A stretch of 64,000 nt of DNA from Schmidtea polychroa. Its lineage: Eukaryota. Below are positions 40,047-64,000 of the stretch, piece after piece. The translations under genes were made by a program, and so were the position numbers. Every line of letters starts with the position of its first letter. Position 1 is the first letter of the stretch. Below the pieces are notes generated by a model. That model did no database searches. It had not been told where the DNA came from and worked only from the letters and a program-made list of their open reading frames with translations. Location: the NCBI GenBank assembly GCA_044892525.1, contig CM097885.1, forward strand, positions 22,198,001-22,262,000, given 5' to 3'.

Positions 40047-43632
<3,586 letters not shown>

Positions 43633-55400: not shown

Positions 55401-56370
55401 GTAAGATTTTCTTTCTGTTCATATTTTGATCAAACTGATATATTCTTAATTTTCAATTCGAACATTTATTATGATTTACCTAACTTCTGCAGAACTTTCA
55501 GTAAATTTATTTAAAAAGCTTGACTGTGAATCAGTAAATATATCGATATTTTTGATTCAAGCTTTTTAATAAATACAATAGAAAAGAAATCAGTGGTGAA
55601 ATTTTAAAAAATTCAGTAATTTTATTGATATTTTACTTTTTTAAATGTCTATACGCGAATTAAGCATGTGAAATGTTTACACAGACTTGCGTCAATAGAG
55701 GCAAATGGATATTATCGCTATTATGTCACTACTAAACAAAATTTTATTGATAAGTATATAATGTTTGAACCTATCACCAAATTTAAAATGAATAAAATTG
55801 TTTTTCTATACAATTAACAATAAGGAACATTGAGAGTCAGATATTGTATCAACAGTAGTGGGGATATATCCCTCACGACCACAGGCCTCCCACTGTTTTC
55901 ATGTTTTATACCTATTTTTCCCCCATAAACGTAAAAAAAAACACTTAAAACCCCTAAAAACCTATATCTTTTAATTTCTTTATTCTGAAGACATTTTGGT
56001 TTCAAAATAAAGACTTAAAAAAACAACAAAAATATTAAAAAAACAACAAAAATATTAATAAAACGGGGAAAAAAATACTGATAAAACTATGAAAAACGTT
56101 TGTCGGCTTGCGGTCGTTAGGGATATAAACACACTACTTGAGGATGTCAACTAGCAAGTTGCTATTTGACTAATTTATGAAAATAGTAAAACTGCTCTGA
56201 GAGGACAGTGGTATTTTTTTTTTTTTTTTTTTCACTGTCCTCTCAACAGTTTTTTTTGATCCGGATCATTTTTTTTTTTTATTTCAACCTCTTTCGTTTA
56301 TCAAATCTCTTCCAATATACAAGCTGGCCAGACTTATATATCAGAATCAATTCGATAATAGCAGCACACC

Positions 56371-57188
56371 TTATTATTCGCTTCTCGCTCACGAAGTCGA
56401 TTTCATCGGCGTTTTAAGTGTGCTGCTCGAAAGTACAAATGAATTCGAAAGCGAATCCGAAAGAGGTCCGAAAACAACCAAGAAATAAATGTGCACATTA
56501 TAGAATCGATCCGGGGGTGTTCGAAAGACTGGTGGCGATAATTACCGGTTCGCCACCATCACCCGTTTCAATATTTTTTTTTTCATATTTATGTTTAAAA
56601 ATTAATTAAAAATTAATATTTTTTTTTTCATATTTATGTTTAAAAATTAATTAATTAATAAATAAATAAAATAAACAAGATTTATTTCCTAAGATACCCA
56701 CACTATATATTTTTTTAATATTTATTTTCAAAAATTATTTTCAATATTATTTTCAAATTTTTAATATTATTTTATGTTAAAAAAAAAACTAACCGTAGTT
56801 AGTTATTATTCGCTTCTCGCTCACGAAGTCGATTTCATCGGCGTTTTAAGTGTGCTGCTCGAAAGTACAAATGAATTCGAAAGCGAATCCGAAAGAGGTC
56901 CGAAAACAACCAAGAAATAAATGTGCACATTATAGAATCGATCCGGGGGTGTTCGAAAGACTGGTGGCGATAATTACCGGTTCGCCACCATCACCCGTTT
57001 CAATATTTTTTTTTCATATTTATGTTTAAAAATTAATTAATTAATAAATAAATAAAATAAACAAGATTTATTTCCTAAGATACCCACACTATATATTTTT
57101 TTAATATTTATTTTCAAAAATTATTTTCAATATTATTTTCAAATTTTTAATATTATTTTATGTTAAAAAAAAAACTAACCGTAGTTAG
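56371..57188. repeat. Near-perfect tandem duplication (~432 and ~386 bp units) in the Polinton terminal region
   Basis: Unit 1 is 56371-56802 (with an extra ~45-bp internal duplication); unit 2 is 56803-57188. Both start TTATTATTCGCTTCTCGCTC. Confidence 0.95.
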
Positions 57189-57250
57189 GATTTGAACCGC
57201 TAGCATTTGAACCACTGTGCCAGTCTATTCCCACTGCGCTATCGGAGTTC
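57165..57250 (-). ncRNA. Putative Pol III (type 2 promoter) small RNA, copy A
   Basis: Minus strand: A box TAGCGCAGTGG (57241-57231), B box GGTTCAAATCC (57198-57188), a second B-like box, 3' hairpin CTAAC-TACG-GTTAG, then T10. Confidence 0.6.
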
Positions 57251-57399
57251 GGATTTTTGTCATTTTTTAAATTTTTAATTAATAAAAAAATAAAATAAAA
57301 TAAATAAAATAAAATAAAAATAAATAAAATAAAATATAAATCTAAGATACCCACACCATTTTCAATATTATTTTCAAATTTTTAATATTATTTTATGTT

Positions 57400-57483
57400 A
57401 AAAAAAACTAACCGTAGTTAGGATTTGAACCGCTATCCATTTGAACCACTGTGCCAGTCTAGCCCACTGCGCTATCGGAGTTC
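57400..57483 (-). ncRNA. Putative Pol III small RNA, copy B
   Basis: Same architecture: A box 57474-57464, B box 57431-57421, cUACGg hairpin 57421-57408, T8. Confidence 0.6.
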
Positions 57484-57518
57484 GGATTTTTGTCATTTTT
57501 TAAAATTTTATTATAAAA

Positions 57519-58811
57519 ATGAATAATATAAATCTTAAAATTCAAGAAAAAAATAAATTAAATCTTGATTATAATAAAGAATTTACTCATGAAATCAAGA
57601 AAAATGATATTTTAAAAATCTCGCCAACTTCAGGATCTATTGCAAACTTAAATCGTAGGGGTGATATAGTTTTTCAATCTCTTCAAACATCAAACCCAAT
57701 AGATATTTGTAATGCCAAATTATATTATAAAATTGAATTAGAAATTGAAGCAAACAAAGATATAACCCTAGAAAATAATTTCTTTCCAAATTTATTCTCC
57801 AACATGAGATTAAAACTAGGATCATCAGAAATTGAAACTGTTTTGCATCCAGGAGTATATTCTACAATGTTAAATTTTATTTTAACTGGTTGTGATTATA
57901 AAAACGAATATGGTGAATTAACAGGTTGGATTCCTGATGTTAATAAAGGAGATTTAGATAAAGATGGTTTAGATATAAATTATGCTTACTATAAAAGAGC
58001 TGAACTTTATAAGTTGAAAAAATTTGAAGGTTATTTTGAATTAAAACACTTGTTCGGATTCCTTCAAAACTATAACCGGGTGCTCCATAATGTTTTTATA
58101 GAACTCATCTGTAATAGACTAGAAGGTGATAAAAGATTGTTCTATGGAGCTGCAGATACAAAAGCTAAATTAAAATTATCAACACTTGAATTGCATATAC
58201 CTGAATGGACATTAAATCCACATTCTGAAATCAAACTCCTTGAAAGATTAAATTCCAACAAATCTATAAATGTAAATTATTTAAATCGAATCTGTAGTGA
58301 ATTTAGTATGACAGAGGGTTCAACATATTCTATAAAGGTAGCAAATTTAGCATACCGACCAAGATATATCTTGATTGGATTCAAAGAAACAGATTCATCT
58401 TTCCAAAAAAATAACAATCTATTTATTCAAAAGATTGGAGATGATAATATAAAAACAATTCAAATTCAATTAAATAGTTATTATCCAATAAATAGAATGG
58501 AATTTAATATTGAAAATAATGAAAACATATTCCCATATCTAAATTATATTGAAACATGTTATGATTTCAAAGTTGAACCGCAATTAAGTTTAGAAGATTT
58601 CAAAAATTTATATTCTATATTTTGTATAAATGTATCAGACCAAGATGATCGCCTAGCTATAAATAATGTTGATGTTACACTTCATATAACAAAGGATTCT
58701 AATTTTAAAGCTAAAGTATATACATTAATATTAGAAGAAAAGAAAATAGAAATGAAATTATATGGTGGAAAGATTTCAATTATTGAAAATGTTAGGGAAG
58801 ATTCTTCATAA
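57519..58811 (+). CDS. Polinton major capsid protein (double jelly-roll)
   Basis: 430-aa intact ORF with Polinton MCP-like motifs: NNFFPNLFS.MRL.LG..EIE, PRYILIGF, YYP, F..LYSIFCINVS.Q. Confidence 0.85.
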   Translation: MNNINLKIQEKNKLNLDYNKEFTHEIKKNDILKISPTSGSIANLNRRGDIVFQSLQTSNPIDICNAKLYYKIELEIEANKDITLENNFFPNLFSNMRLKLGSSEIETVLHPGVYSTMLNFILTGCDYKNEYGELTGWIPDVNKGDLDKDGLDINYAYYKRAELYKLKKFEGYFELKHLFGFLQNYNRVLHNVFIELICNRLEGDKRLFYGAADTKAKLKLSTLELHIPEWTLNPHSEIKLLERLNSNKSINVNYLNRICSEFSMTEGSTYSIKVANLAYRPRYILIGFKETDSSFQKNNNLFIQKIGDDNIKTIQIQLNSYYPINRMEFNIENNENIFPYLNYIETCYDFKVEPQLSLEDFKNLYSIFCINVSDQDDRLAINNVDVTLHITKDSNFKAKVYTLILEEKKIEMKLYGGKISIIENVREDSS

Positions 58812-58840
58812 GTAGATTCCCCCATAAAAAAACTTTTAAA

Positions 58841-60232
58841 ATGAGTAAATATTGGACATGTGAAAGTTGTAATTGTCAAGTTACAAGACATCACAAAGCA
58901 AGTCATCTCAAAACTAAAAAACATACGAGAGTTGATATTACAGGAGGCGACCTACAATCTTCAAAAACAACATCTACAATATTAAAACCTTTTACTACAA
59001 AAAAATATCTAGGTGAAAGACATTTATTCCGTCACAATTATACTGGACCAGGAACAAGATTAGATATTAGATTAGATGAAAATAATAATCCTAAACAAGG
59101 AGAAGAACCAATAAATAGAATCGACCAAGCAGCTTTAAAACATGACATTGCTTACAACTCTGAAGATCTTAGAGATAGACATGTTGCTGATGTGAATTTA
59201 ATACATGATTTAAATAATATACAAAATCCATCAAGCAAGGAAAAGATTCAAAGAGCTCTAGTTAAATTAGCAATGAAAGGTAAGATTTTCATAGGAGCAG
59301 GACTTCCTAGAAAAGCAAAAGATGTTGCTAATAAAAGGATTATTGAACAAGCAGACGTTGAAAGATCCCTTGAGAATCAACTCTTTGAGAATAAACCCTT
59401 ACAAACCCCAACAGAATCACAAATAAAATATGCCAACGAATTACACCATGAATTTAGAAAAAATAAAAAATATTTAAAAGTTCAAGTACATGAAAAAGAT
59501 CAAACATGGTCTGCTGATTTAGTCTTTATGCCAACCAAATCATCAGACCCTGAAAAATATAAAATAATTTTAACAGTAATAGATTTATATACAAGATTTG
59601 CTTTTGCAAGATGTTTAGAAAATAAAACAGGATATTCTATTACAGAAGCATTTGAAAATATATTTGAACAACATCAAAGAATTCCAAAATATTTATGGTG
59701 TGATAAAGGAACAGAATTTTATAACAAAGTTTTTACAAAGTTTTTAAATGAAAATGATATTAAATTATATTCAACAGAAAACGAAGGAAAAGCAGTCGTA
59801 GTTGAAAGATTAAATAGAACATTAAAAAATAAAATGTGGAAATATTTTACTGCTATTGGAAAACAAAAATGGAACAATGAATTGTTACAAAAGATTTTAA
59901 ATGAATATAATAATGATGTACATAGTTCTATAAAATTAACACCCTTAAATGCTTCCTTGAATCCTGAAACCATTAAAGTGGTAAATATTGAAAATGATGT
60001 TATTGTTGATACAACCCCTATAAAACCAAAGTTTAAAATTGGTGACCGAGTAAGAATATTTAAATATAAAAATAAATTTGAAAAAGGATTCACAGCAAAA
60101 TGGACAAATGAAATTTTTATTATAAATAAAATACATTATACAACTCCAATAACATATAGCATCATTGATTTAAATAATGAAAAAATATTAGGTAGATTTT
60201 ATAATAATGAACTACAGAAAACAGATTTTTAA
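58841..60232 (+). CDS. Zinc finger-phospholipase A2-retroviral-type integrase fusion
   Basis: CxxC..H..H N-terminus. Parvoviral PLA2 motifs YTGPG, DxxAxxHDxxY and AD. DDE triad WSADL / CDKGTEF / VVERLNRT (D-33-E). C-terminal PKFKIGDRVRI..FEKG..WT.E.F. No chromodomain. Confidence 0.92.
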   Translation: MSKYWTCESCNCQVTRHHKASHLKTKKHTRVDITGGDLQSSKTTSTILKPFTTKKYLGERHLFRHNYTGPGTRLDIRLDENNNPKQGEEPINRIDQAALKHDIAYNSEDLRDRHVADVNLIHDLNNIQNPSSKEKIQRALVKLAMKGKIFIGAGLPRKAKDVANKRIIEQADVERSLENQLFENKPLQTPTESQIKYANELHHEFRKNKKYLKVQVHEKDQTWSADLVFMPTKSSDPEKYKIILTVIDLYTRFAFARCLENKTGYSITEAFENIFEQHQRIPKYLWCDKGTEFYNKVFTKFLNENDIKLYSTENEGKAVVVERLNRTLKNKMWKYFTAIGKQKWNNELLQKILNEYNNDVHSSIKLTPLNASLNPETIKVVNIENDVIVDTTPIKPKFKIGDRVRIFKYKNKFEKGFTAKWTNEIFIINKIHYTTPITYSIIDLNNEKILGRFYNNELQKTDF

Positions 60233-61023
60233 GTCGACAAGCCCTAAAACAAACTTTTTCCATATTTCAGCTTCTTCTCTATCCAAATAAATATAATTAT
60301 ATTTTTCTTTCCAATGATTATCAACAAACATATCAAACATATTCTTATCAGGTTCAACATTTGAAAATAAATCATTATAAATCATATTCTTATCACGCTT
60401 GTCTAATTTAAAAATATAAAACAATTAGAATTATTTCTTATAGAGTTTTTATCTAAAGCATAATATGTTTGAGATATATAAATAACATTACAATTATTAT
60501 GTCGACCTCGTGTAAAGTAACTCTTTTGAATCTCTTGATTTTTCATATTAACAACATCATCAAATATAACTAGATTCTTTTTATCTTTAGGAAGTAAATC
60601 ACAATGTAAAACATCTTCAGGTTTATTAGAGAATAAGATCTGGATTCCATCCCCTATATAATCATTTTTATTACTAATATCTGATTCTAAAATCTTTTCC
60701 TTGTACCAATCAACCATATCACAAGGATGAAAAACCTCTTCGGGATATGTATGTTGATTTTTAAAAATATCAATTATAGCTTATTTAGTTAATTTATTTT
60801 CAAATCCACATTTCAAAAGTTGTAATTCCGGTTGGTTAATGGTTGTAGAATAAAAGATTAAATTATTATAATCCAAAAAACCATCTTCTAATAACATTCT
60901 CATAAGAAGAACATTCTTTCCACATCCAGAAGATCCAATAATTAAGCATCTAAAATTATCAGGAAATACTTTATTATTAAATTTAGATTTATGTCTATTT
61001 AAAATTGGTTTCCAAGTATCCAT
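60212..61023 (-). pseudogene. A32/FtsK-like packaging ATPase, disrupted
   Basis: Walker A GSSGCGKN, Walker B LVIFDD, FTRGRHNN and ISQ motifs. In-frame TAA at 60781-60783 and a 1-nt frameshift near 60410. Confidence 0.9.
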
Positions 61024-61039
61024 TTTTATTTATTATAAA

Positions 61040-61555
61040 ATGACAACACAAAACCCTACAGAGGAATCTTTGCAAGAATTAATAAATTCAAATAAAAATA
61101 AATCAGTAGTAATCTCTGGTAAAAAATATTTTATTGGAAAACATGTAAAAGAACAAGTTAAAGAAAAACTAAAGGAAGGATGGATTCTTCCTCTGGCGGC
61201 TTTAATACCTGCAATCATTGCCGGACTATCAGGTGCTGCTGGAATAGCTGGAGGAATTGCAACTACAGTTCAAAAAGCTAAAGAATCTCAAAAGACAGAC
61301 CTAGAAAAAGAAAAACTACAAACTGAAATCGAGAAAATGAAGGGAGGGAAAGGTCTTTATCTTGATCCTTATAAAGGTCGTGGTTTAAATGATTTTTTAA
61401 AAAATCAAATTTCTACATCTGAATCTTTATCTTCAAAAGATAAAGATGATTTAAAAAAAATATGTAAATCTTTAAAAAATGGATGTCTTTGTAAAATTAA
61501 AAATGGTAAAGGTTTATACTTGAAACCCTTTCCAACGGATCCTTTACCAAAATGA
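61040..61555 (+). CDS. pX-like (adenovirus protein X/mu-like) membrane-active core protein
   Basis: EGWILPLAALIPAIIAGLSGAAGIAGGIA hydrophobic segment and two GKGLYL.P repeats, as in the X part of adintovirus PLA2X proteins. Confidence 0.7.
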   Translation: MTTQNPTEESLQELINSNKNKSVVISGKKYFIGKHVKEQVKEKLKEGWILPLAALIPAIIAGLSGAAGIAGGIATTVQKAKESQKTDLEKEKLQTEIEKMKGGKGLYLDPYKGRGLNDFLKNQISTSESLSSKDKDDLKKICKSLKNGCLCKIKNGKGLYLKPFPTDPLPK

Positions 61556-61577
61556 TACCATTTTTAATACCATTAAA

Positions 61578-62375
61578 ATGGTATATGAAGAAAGATTAGC
61601 ACTTTTAAAAAAATTACAATCAGAACAAGATAAATATAATAAAAAAGATACAACTCAACACGCTGAATCTATAATATTAAATGAGGTAATCCAACAACAA
61701 CAAGGACCAACAATTAAAGCCATAAAAGAGTTAGAAGTTTTAAAATTTAAAGAGTTGGAAGATAAACAAGATTTAAAAGAATTACCATGGTTGGAAGATT
61801 TAAATATAAAACCTCTTATACTTGATCCTAAAATTAATGTGAGTTTAAGTAAAACAATTAAACCTACATTTAATATTAATGTTGAAGGATATCAAATAAT
61901 AACAATTAATAAACATGACTTTCTGTTATATTTAAATTCAGAAAATAAATCACGTATTCATTCACAAAATGTTTATAATACTAAACACCTAGATTTTGAA
62001 TTTACAGATGATTTTTATGGATTAGTTTGTGGATATCCCTCAGAGAATGTTGATCTTCTAGAAATTAAAAAATATTTAAATTTAATAGAATTAGTACATG
62101 GTAGTGCTAAAGCAAAACATATTCAAGATTTAAAGAAATATTTAAATAAAAATGAAAGGGGTTATATTGTCACAGAAGGAGAGGGCCAGGGTCAGGGCCA
62201 GAGAAAGGGTAAGGAGATAAACCCAATCAATCTTTTTATTGAATTAAGAAAACTATTAGCAGCAAGGAAAGCAGGACATAATAATTTAGATTCTGATATT
62301 TTAAAGATTTCTAAAGAATTATTAAAACAAGGAATAATTTCAAAAGATAAATTTAATAAGTATACGAAGTTATAA
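61578..62375 (+). CDS. Conserved Polinton protein of unknown function
   Basis: 265-aa intact ORF. C-terminal NPINL..ELRKLLAARKAGHNN...ELLKQGII resembles a motif recurrent in invertebrate Polintons. Confidence 0.65.
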   Translation: MVYEERLALLKKLQSEQDKYNKKDTTQHAESIILNEVIQQQQGPTIKAIKELEVLKFKELEDKQDLKELPWLEDLNIKPLILDPKINVSLSKTIKPTFNINVEGYQIITINKHDFLLYLNSENKSRIHSQNVYNTKHLDFEFTDDFYGLVCGYPSENVDLLEIKKYLNLIELVHGSAKAKHIQDLKKYLNKNERGYIVTEGEGQGQGQRKGKEINPINLFIELRKLLAARKAGHNNLDSDILKISKELLKQGIISKDKFNKYTKL

Positions 62376-62397
62376 ATACGAAGTTATAAAATATAAA

Positions 62398-62820
62398 ATG
62401 ACTCCTTCAATATTAGATTTTTTAAAAACATTTGGAATAACAAATTTTGATTTAAAAGATTATGCAGATTATTTAAATTTAAAAATAAAAATATTAATGA
62501 ATGATGAATTGTCGAGTCTGAAAGAAGACACTCCAAAGAATATCATTATAAATTATCAAAATTCAAATGAAAAAGGATCTCATTGGGTTTGTATATATAA
62601 TAAATCTATATACTTTGATTCTTTTGGGATTAAACCCACTAAAGAAGTTGAAGACTATCTCTCGGACTACACTTTTAATTCTTTACAAGTTCAACCTAAT
62701 AATACTAAAATATGTGGTATTTTAAGCTTATATGTTTTGTATAGATTGAATAAATCTAAAGGAGAAGGTTTCACTTCCTTAATCCAAGAAATTTATAATG
62801 ATTTAAAATCTATACTATGA
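62398..62820 (+). CDS. Adenain-like cysteine maturation protease
   Basis: Catalytic motifs GSHWV, YFDSFG, QVQ and CG. Confidence 0.92.
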   Translation: MTPSILDFLKTFGITNFDLKDYADYLNLKIKILMNDELSSLKEDTPKNIIINYQNSNEKGSHWVCIYNKSIYFDSFGIKPTKEVEDYLSDYTFNSLQVQPNNTKICGILSLYVLYRLNKSKGEGFTSLIQEIYNDLKSIL

Positions 62821-63587
62821 AAATGGAGCTTCGCAACCTTCCGGAAGATAATTTAAAAAAAATGGTAAACATAATGTCAGATAAATATTCAAGAACTTTA
62901 TCTATAAATTCAAAAGAATCAGACTTTACTATAAACTTTCAAGATTCAATTAAATTAGATCAAAATTTAAATTATGAATTAGGACTATTATGGTTTTGTG
63001 CTTATAATACTATTTTTAATATAACTAAAGATAATAACATATTTTATTATATAAGCCCAAAATCTACAGATAAGATTATAATAACAATCGAACCCGGAGC
63101 TTATGAGATAAAAGATTTAAATAATATACTTTCTAAAAAAACAAATGGAGTCATTAAAATTAAAATGGATTTACCAACTTCAAAATGTATAATGACTTTA
63201 GAGAATATAGGAATTCATTTTCAAAATAATAGTTTCTTTAGAACAATTTTAGGATTTACACGAAACCATTATATCACACCTGTAGTTGAGAATATAACAT
63301 CAGAAAATATTATAAAAATAATAAATACAAACACAATAAATATTCATTGTGATTGTATAACAGGTTCTTATAATAATGGTAAACAAACAAATGTTTTATA
63401 TTCCTTTCCCTCAAACACAGTTCCTATGGGATATAAAATAGTTGAAAGAATGAATCCTCCAAATTATTTACCTTTATGTAGAAAATATATAATGGATATT
63501 AATTTTAAAATTCTTAATCAAGAAGGAGAATTGATTGATTTTAATGGAGAAGAGATTTCAATGTATTTACATTTGAAACAGGTTTGA
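62817..63587 (+). CDS. Polinton minor capsid (penton) protein
   Basis: YNTIFNIT..NN, PGAYEI.DLN, I.IHCD.I.GSY.NG, P.GYKIVE, NQ.G.LIDFNGE.I...LHL. 4-bp ATGA overlap with the protease gene. Confidence 0.88.
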   Translation: MKMELRNLPEDNLKKMVNIMSDKYSRTLSINSKESDFTINFQDSIKLDQNLNYELGLLWFCAYNTIFNITKDNNIFYYISPKSTDKIIITIEPGAYEIKDLNNILSKKTNGVIKIKMDLPTSKCIMTLENIGIHFQNNSFFRTILGFTRNHYITPVVENITSENIIKIINTNTINIHCDCITGSYNNGKQTNVLYSFPSNTVPMGYKIVERMNPPNYLPLCRKYIMDINFKILNQEGELIDFNGEEISMYLHLKQV

Positions 63588-63611
63588 AGATTCATTTTAA
63601 ATTATTAATAA

Positions 63612-64000
63612 ATGAGTTCTTATATTCCATGTAATAGAGGTGGTGGAACAATAAAAACAGGGTTTAATACAGAAGAAATATTAACTTTAACAGAAAATAA
63701 ATATATTAATGAAAGAGGTGATTCAATGAAGGGTGATTTAATTTTAAATGGACACAAGATAAAAGAATTATCTTTTCCAACTGATGAAGCTGATGCAGTT
63801 AATAAGAAATATGTAGATGGTGTTAAAAAATATACTGATTTAACAACAACAAGAATTGAAAGTTCATTAACAACAAAAATTGATTCAATGGAATCAAAGC
63901 TTAATAATATCGAACAACGATTTAATGATAAATTTGACAAGTTACAAAGTCTGTTAACTGAACAAGTTGTAAAGTTAAATACTAGCATATTAAATTCTAA
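63612..64000 (+). CDS. Fiber-like protein (5' part; open at the window end)
   Basis: Manual translation MSSYIPCNRGGG..GDSMKGDLILNGHKIKELSFPTDEADAVNKKYVD, then a heptad-like segment; no stop before 64000. Confidence 0.7.
   Translation, partial: MSSYIPCNRGGGTIKTGFNTEEILTLTENKYINERGDSMKGDLILNGHKIKELSFPTDEADAVNKKYVDGVKKYTDLTTTRIESSLTTKIDSMESKLNNIEQRFNDKFDKLQSLLTEQVVKLNTSILNS

Follow-up and report, generated by a model that had tools for sequence, protein, structure and literature searches.

An important question raised by a Polinton copy in Schmidtea polychroa is why two short units with the signals of RNA polymerase III (Pol III) genes lie on the minus strand directly ahead of its capsid gene, and whether such units would act through an RNA product or as DNA. 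The window, i.e., the whole stretch of 64,000 nucleotides that was analysed (GCA_044892525.1, contig CM097885.1, positions 22,198,001 to 22,262,000 of the forward strand), contains both units, designated here Z1 and Z2. According to the original prediction, they may form a small-RNA system analogous to the adenovirus VA RNAs. VA RNA I and II are transcribed from an internal Pol III promoter with A and B boxes; they are ~160 nt long and highly structured, and the virus is related to Polintons. The reading favoured below, to which we assign a probability of about 0.6, is that the Z units represent decayed tRNA-gene cargo of this Polinton lineage in which the type-2 promoter and the terminator have been retained.

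The element itself has the composition of a Polinton (Maverick), with a protein-primed DNA polymerase B, an rve integrase and a double-jelly-roll capsid protein combined between inverted ends (Table 1), whereby neither a packaging ATPase nor a protease was recognized by Pfam. Homology with the sister copies stops at position 55854 on the left side, and the left terminal module recurs in inverted orientation at the right end, beyond the window (window-equivalent 69912-70131). Polintons are normally flanked by a short target-site duplication of about 6 bp. No such duplication was found at the window copy; on either side of it there is, instead, a perfect direct repeat of 67 bp. The Z units are located in the leader of the element, between the left end and the capsid gene, on the strand opposite to the latter.

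Table 1. Features of the Polinton copy and of its two Z units. Coordinates are positions in the 64,000-nt window; those beyond 64000 are window-equivalent positions.
Feature	Position	Strand	Details
Flank sequence, 67 bp	55787-55853	+	Perfect direct repeat just past the right end, window-equivalent 70131-70197
Polinton copy	55854-64000		Continues past the window to ~ window-equivalent 70131
Left terminal module, 287 bp	55854-56140		~30-nt inverted ends
Truncated Z unit, 3' end only (hairpin + T run)	56781-56802	minus	Product of tandem duplication
Unit Z2, tandem copy of Z1	57165-57248	minus	A box, B-like box, B box, hairpin, T10
Z2 terminator run	57165-57174	minus	T10
Z2 5-bp hairpin	57175-57188	minus	CTAAC-UACG-GUUAG
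Z2 B box	57188-57198	minus	GGTTCAAATCC
Z2 B-like box	57203-57213	minus	GGTTCAAATGC
Z2 second A-type match	57212-57222	minus	TGGCACAGTGG
Z2 A box	57231-57241	minus	TAGCGCAGTGG
Z2 predicted start	57248	minus	
Unit Z1, tRNA-gene-sized body	57400-57481	minus	A box, B-like box, B box, hairpin, T8
Z1 terminator run	57400-57407	minus	T8
Z1 5-bp hairpin	57408-57421	minus	CTAAC-UACG-GUUAG
Z1 B box	57421-57431	minus	GGTTCAAATCC
Z1 B-like box	57437-57447	minus	GGTTCAAATGG
Z1 second A-type match	57446-57456	minus	TGGCACAGTGG
Z1 A box	57464-57474	minus	TAGCGCAGTGG
Z1 predicted start	57481	minus	
Major capsid protein gene, double jelly roll	57519-58811	+	PF21738, E 4.3e-25
Integrase (rve core) with N-terminal phospholipase-A2-like domain	58841-60232	+	PF00665, E 6.4e-12; PF08398, E 1.2e-08
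Further ORFs	up to window-equivalent 65221	+	
DNA polymerase B ORF, protein-primed (1475 aa)	window-equivalent 65296-69723	minus	PF03175, E 1.1e-14; seen in locus L031

All sequence elements that had been listed for the two units in the original prediction were found on the minus strand, including the consensus A and B boxes at tRNA-like spacing and the second, B-like box in each unit (GGTTCAAATGG in Z1 and GGTTCAAATGC in Z2). If, by analogy with tRNA genes, the start of each unit is predicted 7 nt ahead of the A box, Z1 and Z2 have the same geometry: 32 nt separate the end of the A box from the B box, another 13 nt separate the B box from the T run, and the distance from the predicted start to the T run is 74 nt. 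The host tRNA genes taken for comparison are 72-73 nt long and have a T run 4-6 nt past the body. The box matches are far above chance, since the A-box consensus TRGCNNAGTGG occurs four times in the 64-kb window against 0.10 expected (four matches in 0 of 100 shuffles) and the B-box consensus GGTTCRANNCC twice against 0.14 expected (two matches in 2 of 100 shuffles); all six fall within Z1 and Z2, on a single strand. In both units, the second A-type match TGGCACAGTGG overlaps the first, B-like box. An A box, a B box, the length of a tRNA and a downstream T run are thus all present, so that the layout of a tRNA-type (type 2) Pol III gene is complete in the Z units.

The two units are part of a tandem repeat with a period of 233, 1.9 copies and 90% matches. 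They had been described as ~85 nt long and as differing only in the stem loop and in the spacer between the B boxes. The units are real and both differences exist, but the body measures 74 nt, with a predicted RNA of ~78 nt, and the length of the T run differs as well. The distance of the nearer unit to the capsid ATG, given before as ~35 bp, is 38 nt when counted from the predicted start of Z1 to position 57519, with the gene running divergently from Z1. A lone hairpin with an A-run, noticed before, is indeed present at 56781-56802; it is, however, the duplicated cut end of Z2, as positions 56620-56802 are 100% identical to 57006-57188 owing to a tandem duplication. In the sister copies inspected (e.g., loci L001 and L002), both duplicated segments of the window map to one overlapping stretch.

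A-box and B-box sequences without a cloverleaf are also typical of the heads of SINEs. One alternative is a host tRNA-derived SINE that was inserted by chance in this Polinton, and its resemblance to such heads, together with a segment of the related unit Y (see below) that is shared with another dispersed repeat, speaks for it. The distribution of the unit in the genome speaks against it. In the host genome, a 23-mer taken from the unit occurs exactly 1256 times (626 + 630; 0 for the reversed control), less often than a 23-mer of the capsid gene (2017 copies) that is common to all eight fetched capsid-upstream loci. All of the best 30 DNA matches to the unit (30/30) have both flanks in common with the window. 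Likewise, contig C1 has 75 unit sites in its first 28.5 Mb, and each of them (75/75) belongs to a Polinton: the capsid 23-mer lies in divergent orientation within 2.5 kb of 53 sites and within 16 kb of 15 more, and the remaining 7 without it were identified by BLAST of their flanks as Polinton copies with deletions or as the polymerase end of an element. Dispersed copies with unrelated flanks, as expected of a SINE, were not found among these 30 and 75 sites. Moreover, the T-run terminator follows immediately after the 74-nt body, without a tail. Like the tRNA-derived SINEs, for instance the B2 family, for which tRNA-like promoters are described (PMC10100704), the Z units have a tRNA-derived head with A and B boxes and no tRNA fold; unlike them, they show no independent dispersal and consist of the tRNA-sized part alone, with neither a body nor a tail added to it. 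The chance insertion of a SINE has, accordingly, a negligible probability, and the assignment of the units to the Polinton rather than to a SINE dispersed outside of it, on which the earlier interpretation depended, holds at all the sites sampled. In a viral contig collection, neither a capsid relative nor a copy of the unit 23-mer was found.

The Z units are not tRNA genes in the strict sense. ARAGORN found no tRNA in the window or in 21 related loci, with 8 tRNAs detected in 7 host loci as a positive control, and Rfam gave no match for the Z units at gathering scores. A relaxed Rfam search of positions 57100-57600 with E-values up to 10 also returned no tRNA match, the sole related one being a 5.5-bit match of a T-loop to tmRNA. 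Threading the Z sequence by eye on the tRNA numbering left the acceptor, D, anticodon and T stems unpaired, in agreement with both programs, and the units consequently lack the cloverleaf of a tRNA gene (Rfam RF00005), as had been stated before.

A possible origin of such a layout became visible in a sister family. Family B comprises elements ~87-93% identical to the window's Polinton, and two full copies of it were examined. Their terminal inverted repeats are ~1 kb long (92.7% and 91.7% identical in the two copies), with one Z unit at the inner edge of each repeat, pointing outward; at the right end, Z and the polymerase ATG are ~100 nt apart. A stretch of ~750 bp that is absent from the window's family lies between the capsid gene and the left Z. 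It holds two more units, X and Y, as well as an 89-codon minus-strand ORF that ends inside Z. Unit X, located 57 nt from the capsid ATG, has the A box TAGCGGAGTGG and a consensus B box in none of its 13 copies. Unit Y scores 32.4 bits on the Rfam tRNA model, above the gathering score of 29; its T arm is perfect and its anticodon loop reads GCA, but three pairs of the anticodon stem and two of the acceptor stem are broken, and ARAGORN did not call it. A segment of Y recurs in another dispersed repeat. No donor tRNA for Y was found among the host loci fetched from the Rfam search (n = 7), which consisted of tRNA-Lys and tRNA-Arg arrays only.

The three units X, Y and Z are colinear over their full length, and Z1 is also colinear with host tRNAs. 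In global alignments, Z1 matched unit Y with a z-score of 6.0 (0 of 1000 shuffles as good), unit X with 4.4 (1 of 1000), host tRNA-Lys with 4.3 (0 of 1000) and host tRNA-Arg with 3.0 (6 of 1000). Based on these scores, Z is tRNA-derived and most similar to Y, although its identity to Y (47-50 of 74 positions) is close to that with the unrelated host tRNA-Lys (47-49 of 74). Z and Y are likely paralogous. In addition, the region of the 3' "hairpin" of Z matches the 3' acceptor strand of both Y and X. Read as decayed tRNA-gene cargo, the Z units have lost the cloverleaf of a captured tRNA gene while keeping its A box, B box, T run and 74-nt dimensions.

The preservation of these parts was followed in 86 unit instances from 51 loci, which gave 61 distinct sequences and, together with the two units of the window, 63 aligned rows. 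The A-box consensus is present in 82 of the 86 copies and the strict B box in 42, the copies without it mostly having a box that ends in A instead of C; 41 copies combine all features with the right spacing and a T run. The CTAAC-N4-GTTAG stem was found in only 38 of the 86 copies. Its 5' arm varies while the 3' arm stays fixed, and no compensatory changes were seen among the aligned copies. Given the 38/86 copies and the uncompensated drift of the 5' arm, the hairpin with its UACG loop, previously regarded as an "extra-stable" feature of the unit, is an accident of some copies.

With a column counted as variable when the minor variant occurred in at least 3 of the 63 rows, the core from A box to B box had 12 variable columns of 54. 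In comparison, 13 of 20 columns were variable in the leader (7 nt) and trailer (13 nt) taken together (p = 9e-4) and 34 of 60 in the downstream flank (p = 2.5e-4), each tested against the core. Because the copies are related and young, mostly 80-100% alike, such tests give no more than an indication. The promoter-bearing core is kept as a block, and the parts that would have formed the acceptor stem drift freely. A constraint specific to the boxes was considered and discarded: the contrast of 5 variable columns of 33 in the boxes with 20 of 41 elsewhere (p = 0.003) is driven by the variable leader and trailer, and inside the core the box columns (5/33) did not differ significantly from the non-box ones (7/21; p = 0.18). 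Since the box columns are not significantly better kept, the constraint may be on the block rather than on the boxes.

The same data bear on the proposal of a functional small RNA, comparable to the VA RNAs or to the viral TMER genes, the transcript of which would counter PKR, Dicer/RNAi or piRNA or else feed small-RNA production. The complete Pol III gene layout is in line with it, and so is the arrangement as tandem copies near one genome end, which resembles that of the TMER genes of murine gammaherpesvirus 68 (PMC4337559). However, the predicted RNA of ~78 nt folded no better than shuffled sequences in any of its four versions (z = 0.02, -0.64, 0.00 and 0.03), the only hairpin has 5 bp and the limited occurrence described above, and no Rfam family was matched. 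The Z RNA would therefore share the internal A/B-box promoter of the VA RNAs but, folding like its shuffles, not their stable and conserved secondary structure. A VA-like RNA function is unlikely in the absence of a fold, a conserved hairpin and an Rfam match, and we consider it very improbable for a TMER-like product too; with fold z-scores around 0, a hairpin in 38/86 copies and a third family that shares the capsid gene and has no unit (see below), the original prediction of a VA-RNA-like system is not supported.

The TMER cluster is the nearest functional analogue of the Z units. Murine gammaherpesvirus 68 is described as having eight tRNA-like TMER genes whose products are not aminoacylated (PMC4337559). 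Both systems would represent Pol III genes of tRNA-like type that contain A and B boxes, are clustered near the left genome end and do not serve as tRNAs. Unlike the Z units, the TMER genes have tRNA-like bodies and pre-miRNA hairpins between the tRNA-like part and the terminator. There is no pre-miRNA-like stem ahead of the Z terminator: the T run begins 13 nt past the B box, and the only stem there has the 5 bp already mentioned.

The units are not present in all relatives of this Polinton. When the capsid 23-mer sites within the first 28.5 Mb of contig C1 (n = 97) were classed by exact 23-mers upstream, 25 had both Y and Z (family B), 23 had Z only (the window's family), 25 had Y only and 24 had neither, the last class including a third family; some sites may be misclassed, as the classes rest on exact 23-mers. 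In the six copies examined of the third family, the capsid genes are 83-89% identical in DNA and their homology with the window starts at the ATG. No match to the A or B box was found within 1.5 kb upstream of these capsid genes, and no A/B pair at tRNA spacing appeared with one mismatch allowed. Conservation of the boxes in related Polintons, proposed earlier as a test, was thus confirmed for at least two sister families and not for the third. Because 24 of the 97 sites have neither Z nor Y and the third family lacks the boxes, the units are dispensable for the spread of the element; they are accessory to a part of this Polinton superfamily.

The third family is also relevant for a reading without any Pol III function, in which the conserved GC-rich block would serve in Pol II control, as promoter or 5' leader of the capsid and polymerase genes on the opposite strand, or as 3' end and terminator region of the small minus-strand ORF of family B. 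The position directly upstream of the outermost genes would agree with this, as would the boxes being no better kept than the remaining core, and in family B the 89-codon ORF enters the unit, with the A box spelling its last codons. The first ~75 codons of this ORF are near-invariant in full-length copies; its tail over the A box of Z shifts in frame and length among copies. Coding was, therefore, ruled out as the cause of the conserved A box. Furthermore, the capsid gene of the third family does without the block, and Pol II control leaves both the exact tRNA-gene geometry and the colinearity with tRNAs unexplained. Altogether, this reading is quite unlikely.

A role of the units as DNA, in the form of a cis-acting site for TFIIIC or Pol III (a tDNA-like boundary, or an anchor of open chromatin that would shield the genes of the element from the chromatin around them or aid the adjacent outermost promoters), has more in its favour and, judged from the sequence, is a lesser but real possibility. 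The original prediction had named TFIIIC sites acting as insulators or activators as its second option, which would fit the location of Z in both terminal repeats of family B. The family B Z units at the inner edges of the terminal repeats, facing outward, bracket all genes of the element; a tRNA-like unit is found 38-57 nt from the capsid ATG in both families (Z1 in the window, X in family B), another unit ~100 nt from the polymerase ATG in family B, and the core is kept as a block. It is this symmetric position, together with the closeness to the start codons of the outermost genes, that makes a cis role conceivable. In yeasts, barrier activity is described both for tDNAs and for sites that bind TFIIIC only (PMC2040200; PMC3395662). 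Compared with such tDNA or ETC boundary elements, the Z units would offer B-box sites able to flank a domain, the analogy being one of position only. On the other hand, units are restricted to the left end in the window's own family, the third family has none, and the B box is weakened in half of the copies.

If the Z units are decayed tRNA-gene cargo, as we favour, TFIIIC and Pol III probably still bind at least the best copies, which are probably also transcribed, since many copies of the unit have an intact internal type-2 promoter and an intact terminator. The product would be a poorly structured RNA of ~78 nt with a U-run at its end and without tRNA function. A search for sequencing runs listed 23, with none on record as RNA that contains the stretch. 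Whatever is selected, if anything, would more likely be the DNA-bound Pol III complex than the RNA, and this complex would be adjacent to the outermost promoters of the element and to the inner edge of each terminal repeat. Otherwise, the Z units may be a young fossil, and their role would be either vestigial or cis-acting. A bolder version, unlikely on the present evidence, is that tRNA genes captured by the Polinton lineage were reduced to Pol III modules with a promoter only, one per terminal repeat. With every integration, two boundary sites bound by TFIIIC/Pol III, or two small-RNA genes, would then be delivered together with the element, and the host genome would have gained more than 1000 extra Pol III loci via Polintons.

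The carriage of tRNA genes by related elements is already known. Section 16 of one survey reports 558 tRNAs in a scan of ~8300 genomes, including polinton-like viruses and virophages (PMC12220804), and the legend of Figure 6 in another study marks predicted tRNA genes in related linear dsDNA viruses (PMC8502044). Polinton-like viruses, virophages and midsize linear dsDNA viruses likewise carry tRNA-type genes as cargo, and these are called as real tRNAs and discussed as codon helpers. The Z units are unlike those: the cloverleaf is gone and only promoter and terminator are left, in a terminal repeat, with more than 1000 copies in an animal-sized genome. In the literature searched, no paper was found in which Polintons are connected to small RNAs made by Pol III, to TFIIIC or to B boxes. 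In the Z units, decay has affected the tRNA part but spared the promoter and the terminator of Pol III, in a unit built into terminal repeats.

Should the units be bound or transcribed, an animal genome would be receiving new Pol III loci and TFIIIC sites from Polintons, which would also serve as a model for a virus-like element managing its chromatin surroundings; should they be silent, the units would be a dated fossil that records how a Polinton captured a tRNA gene. The Polinton family makes up a sizeable part of the 781-Mb genome, as indicated by the 2017 capsid and 1256 unit 23-mers, and contigs C1 to C4 of the host assembly are 93-272 Mb in length.

The Polinton superfamily is very abundant in the host genome assembly (G000), where a single 23-nt word from the capsid gene occurs in 2017 exact copies genome-wide and the capsid domain gave 2527 first-look candidates, with 111 of the 126 scored matches free of internal stops. 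The corresponding 23-nt word from unit Y, one of the three tRNA-like units (X, Y and Z) beside the capsid gene in the sister family, was found in 3089 exact copies, more than the 2017 of the capsid word. Another dispersed repeat, found among loci L068-L072, includes the 3' half of unit Y together with about 135 nt downstream, and four of these loci are identical across 370 nt. Contig C1 has, some 13 kb in from its start, a three-unit array with a period of 243 bp. Host tRNA genes stand in long tandem arrays (G000:C4:76658343-76669437 and contigs C140, C333 and C474): a tRNA-Lys(UUU) array with a 424-bp period, in which 23 matches share one score, and a tRNA-Arg(UCG) array with a 278-bp period. 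The tRNA-like array of the Polinton could derive from host tandem arrays of this kind.

The sister family also has a small ORF rich in K, E and R, which was seen in L056 and in 12 other full-length copies. Among the full-length copies, residues 1 to about 75 are nearly invariant and the tail is variable; a Pfam search with this ORF gave no match.

The positions of the features are collected in the table below.

Features of the window's Polinton copy, of a sister-family copy and of the remaining window
Feature	Position	Description
Left direct repeat	window 55787-55853	67 bp, perfect
Right direct repeat	window-equivalent 70131-70197 (locus L031)	67 bp, perfect
Foldback end module	window 55854-56140	~290 bp; inverted termini of roughly 30 nt, beginning AGTAGTG
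Integrase ORF	window 58841-60232	
Small minus-strand ORF	locus L056 1130-1399 (+)	89 codons; between units Y and Z, sister family
Microsatellite	window 40781-42413	perfect (TGA), 544 copies

Polintons are expected to have a short target duplication, whereas the window copy is bracketed by a much longer perfect direct repeat. Its ends are foldback modules, and the outermost 26 nt of the left end are missing from the right end. In the family lacking tRNA-like units (loci L055, L058 and L060), the roughly 300 nt preceding the capsid gene contain similar foldback sequence, with inverted ends reading ...TAGTAGTG or AAGTAGTGG. The integrase ORF carries a phospholipase-A2-like domain N-terminal to the rve core (PF08398, E 1.2e-08).

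Elsewhere in the window, the microsatellite accounts for the GC-skew spike at its position and for the occurrence there of long ORFs in several frames.
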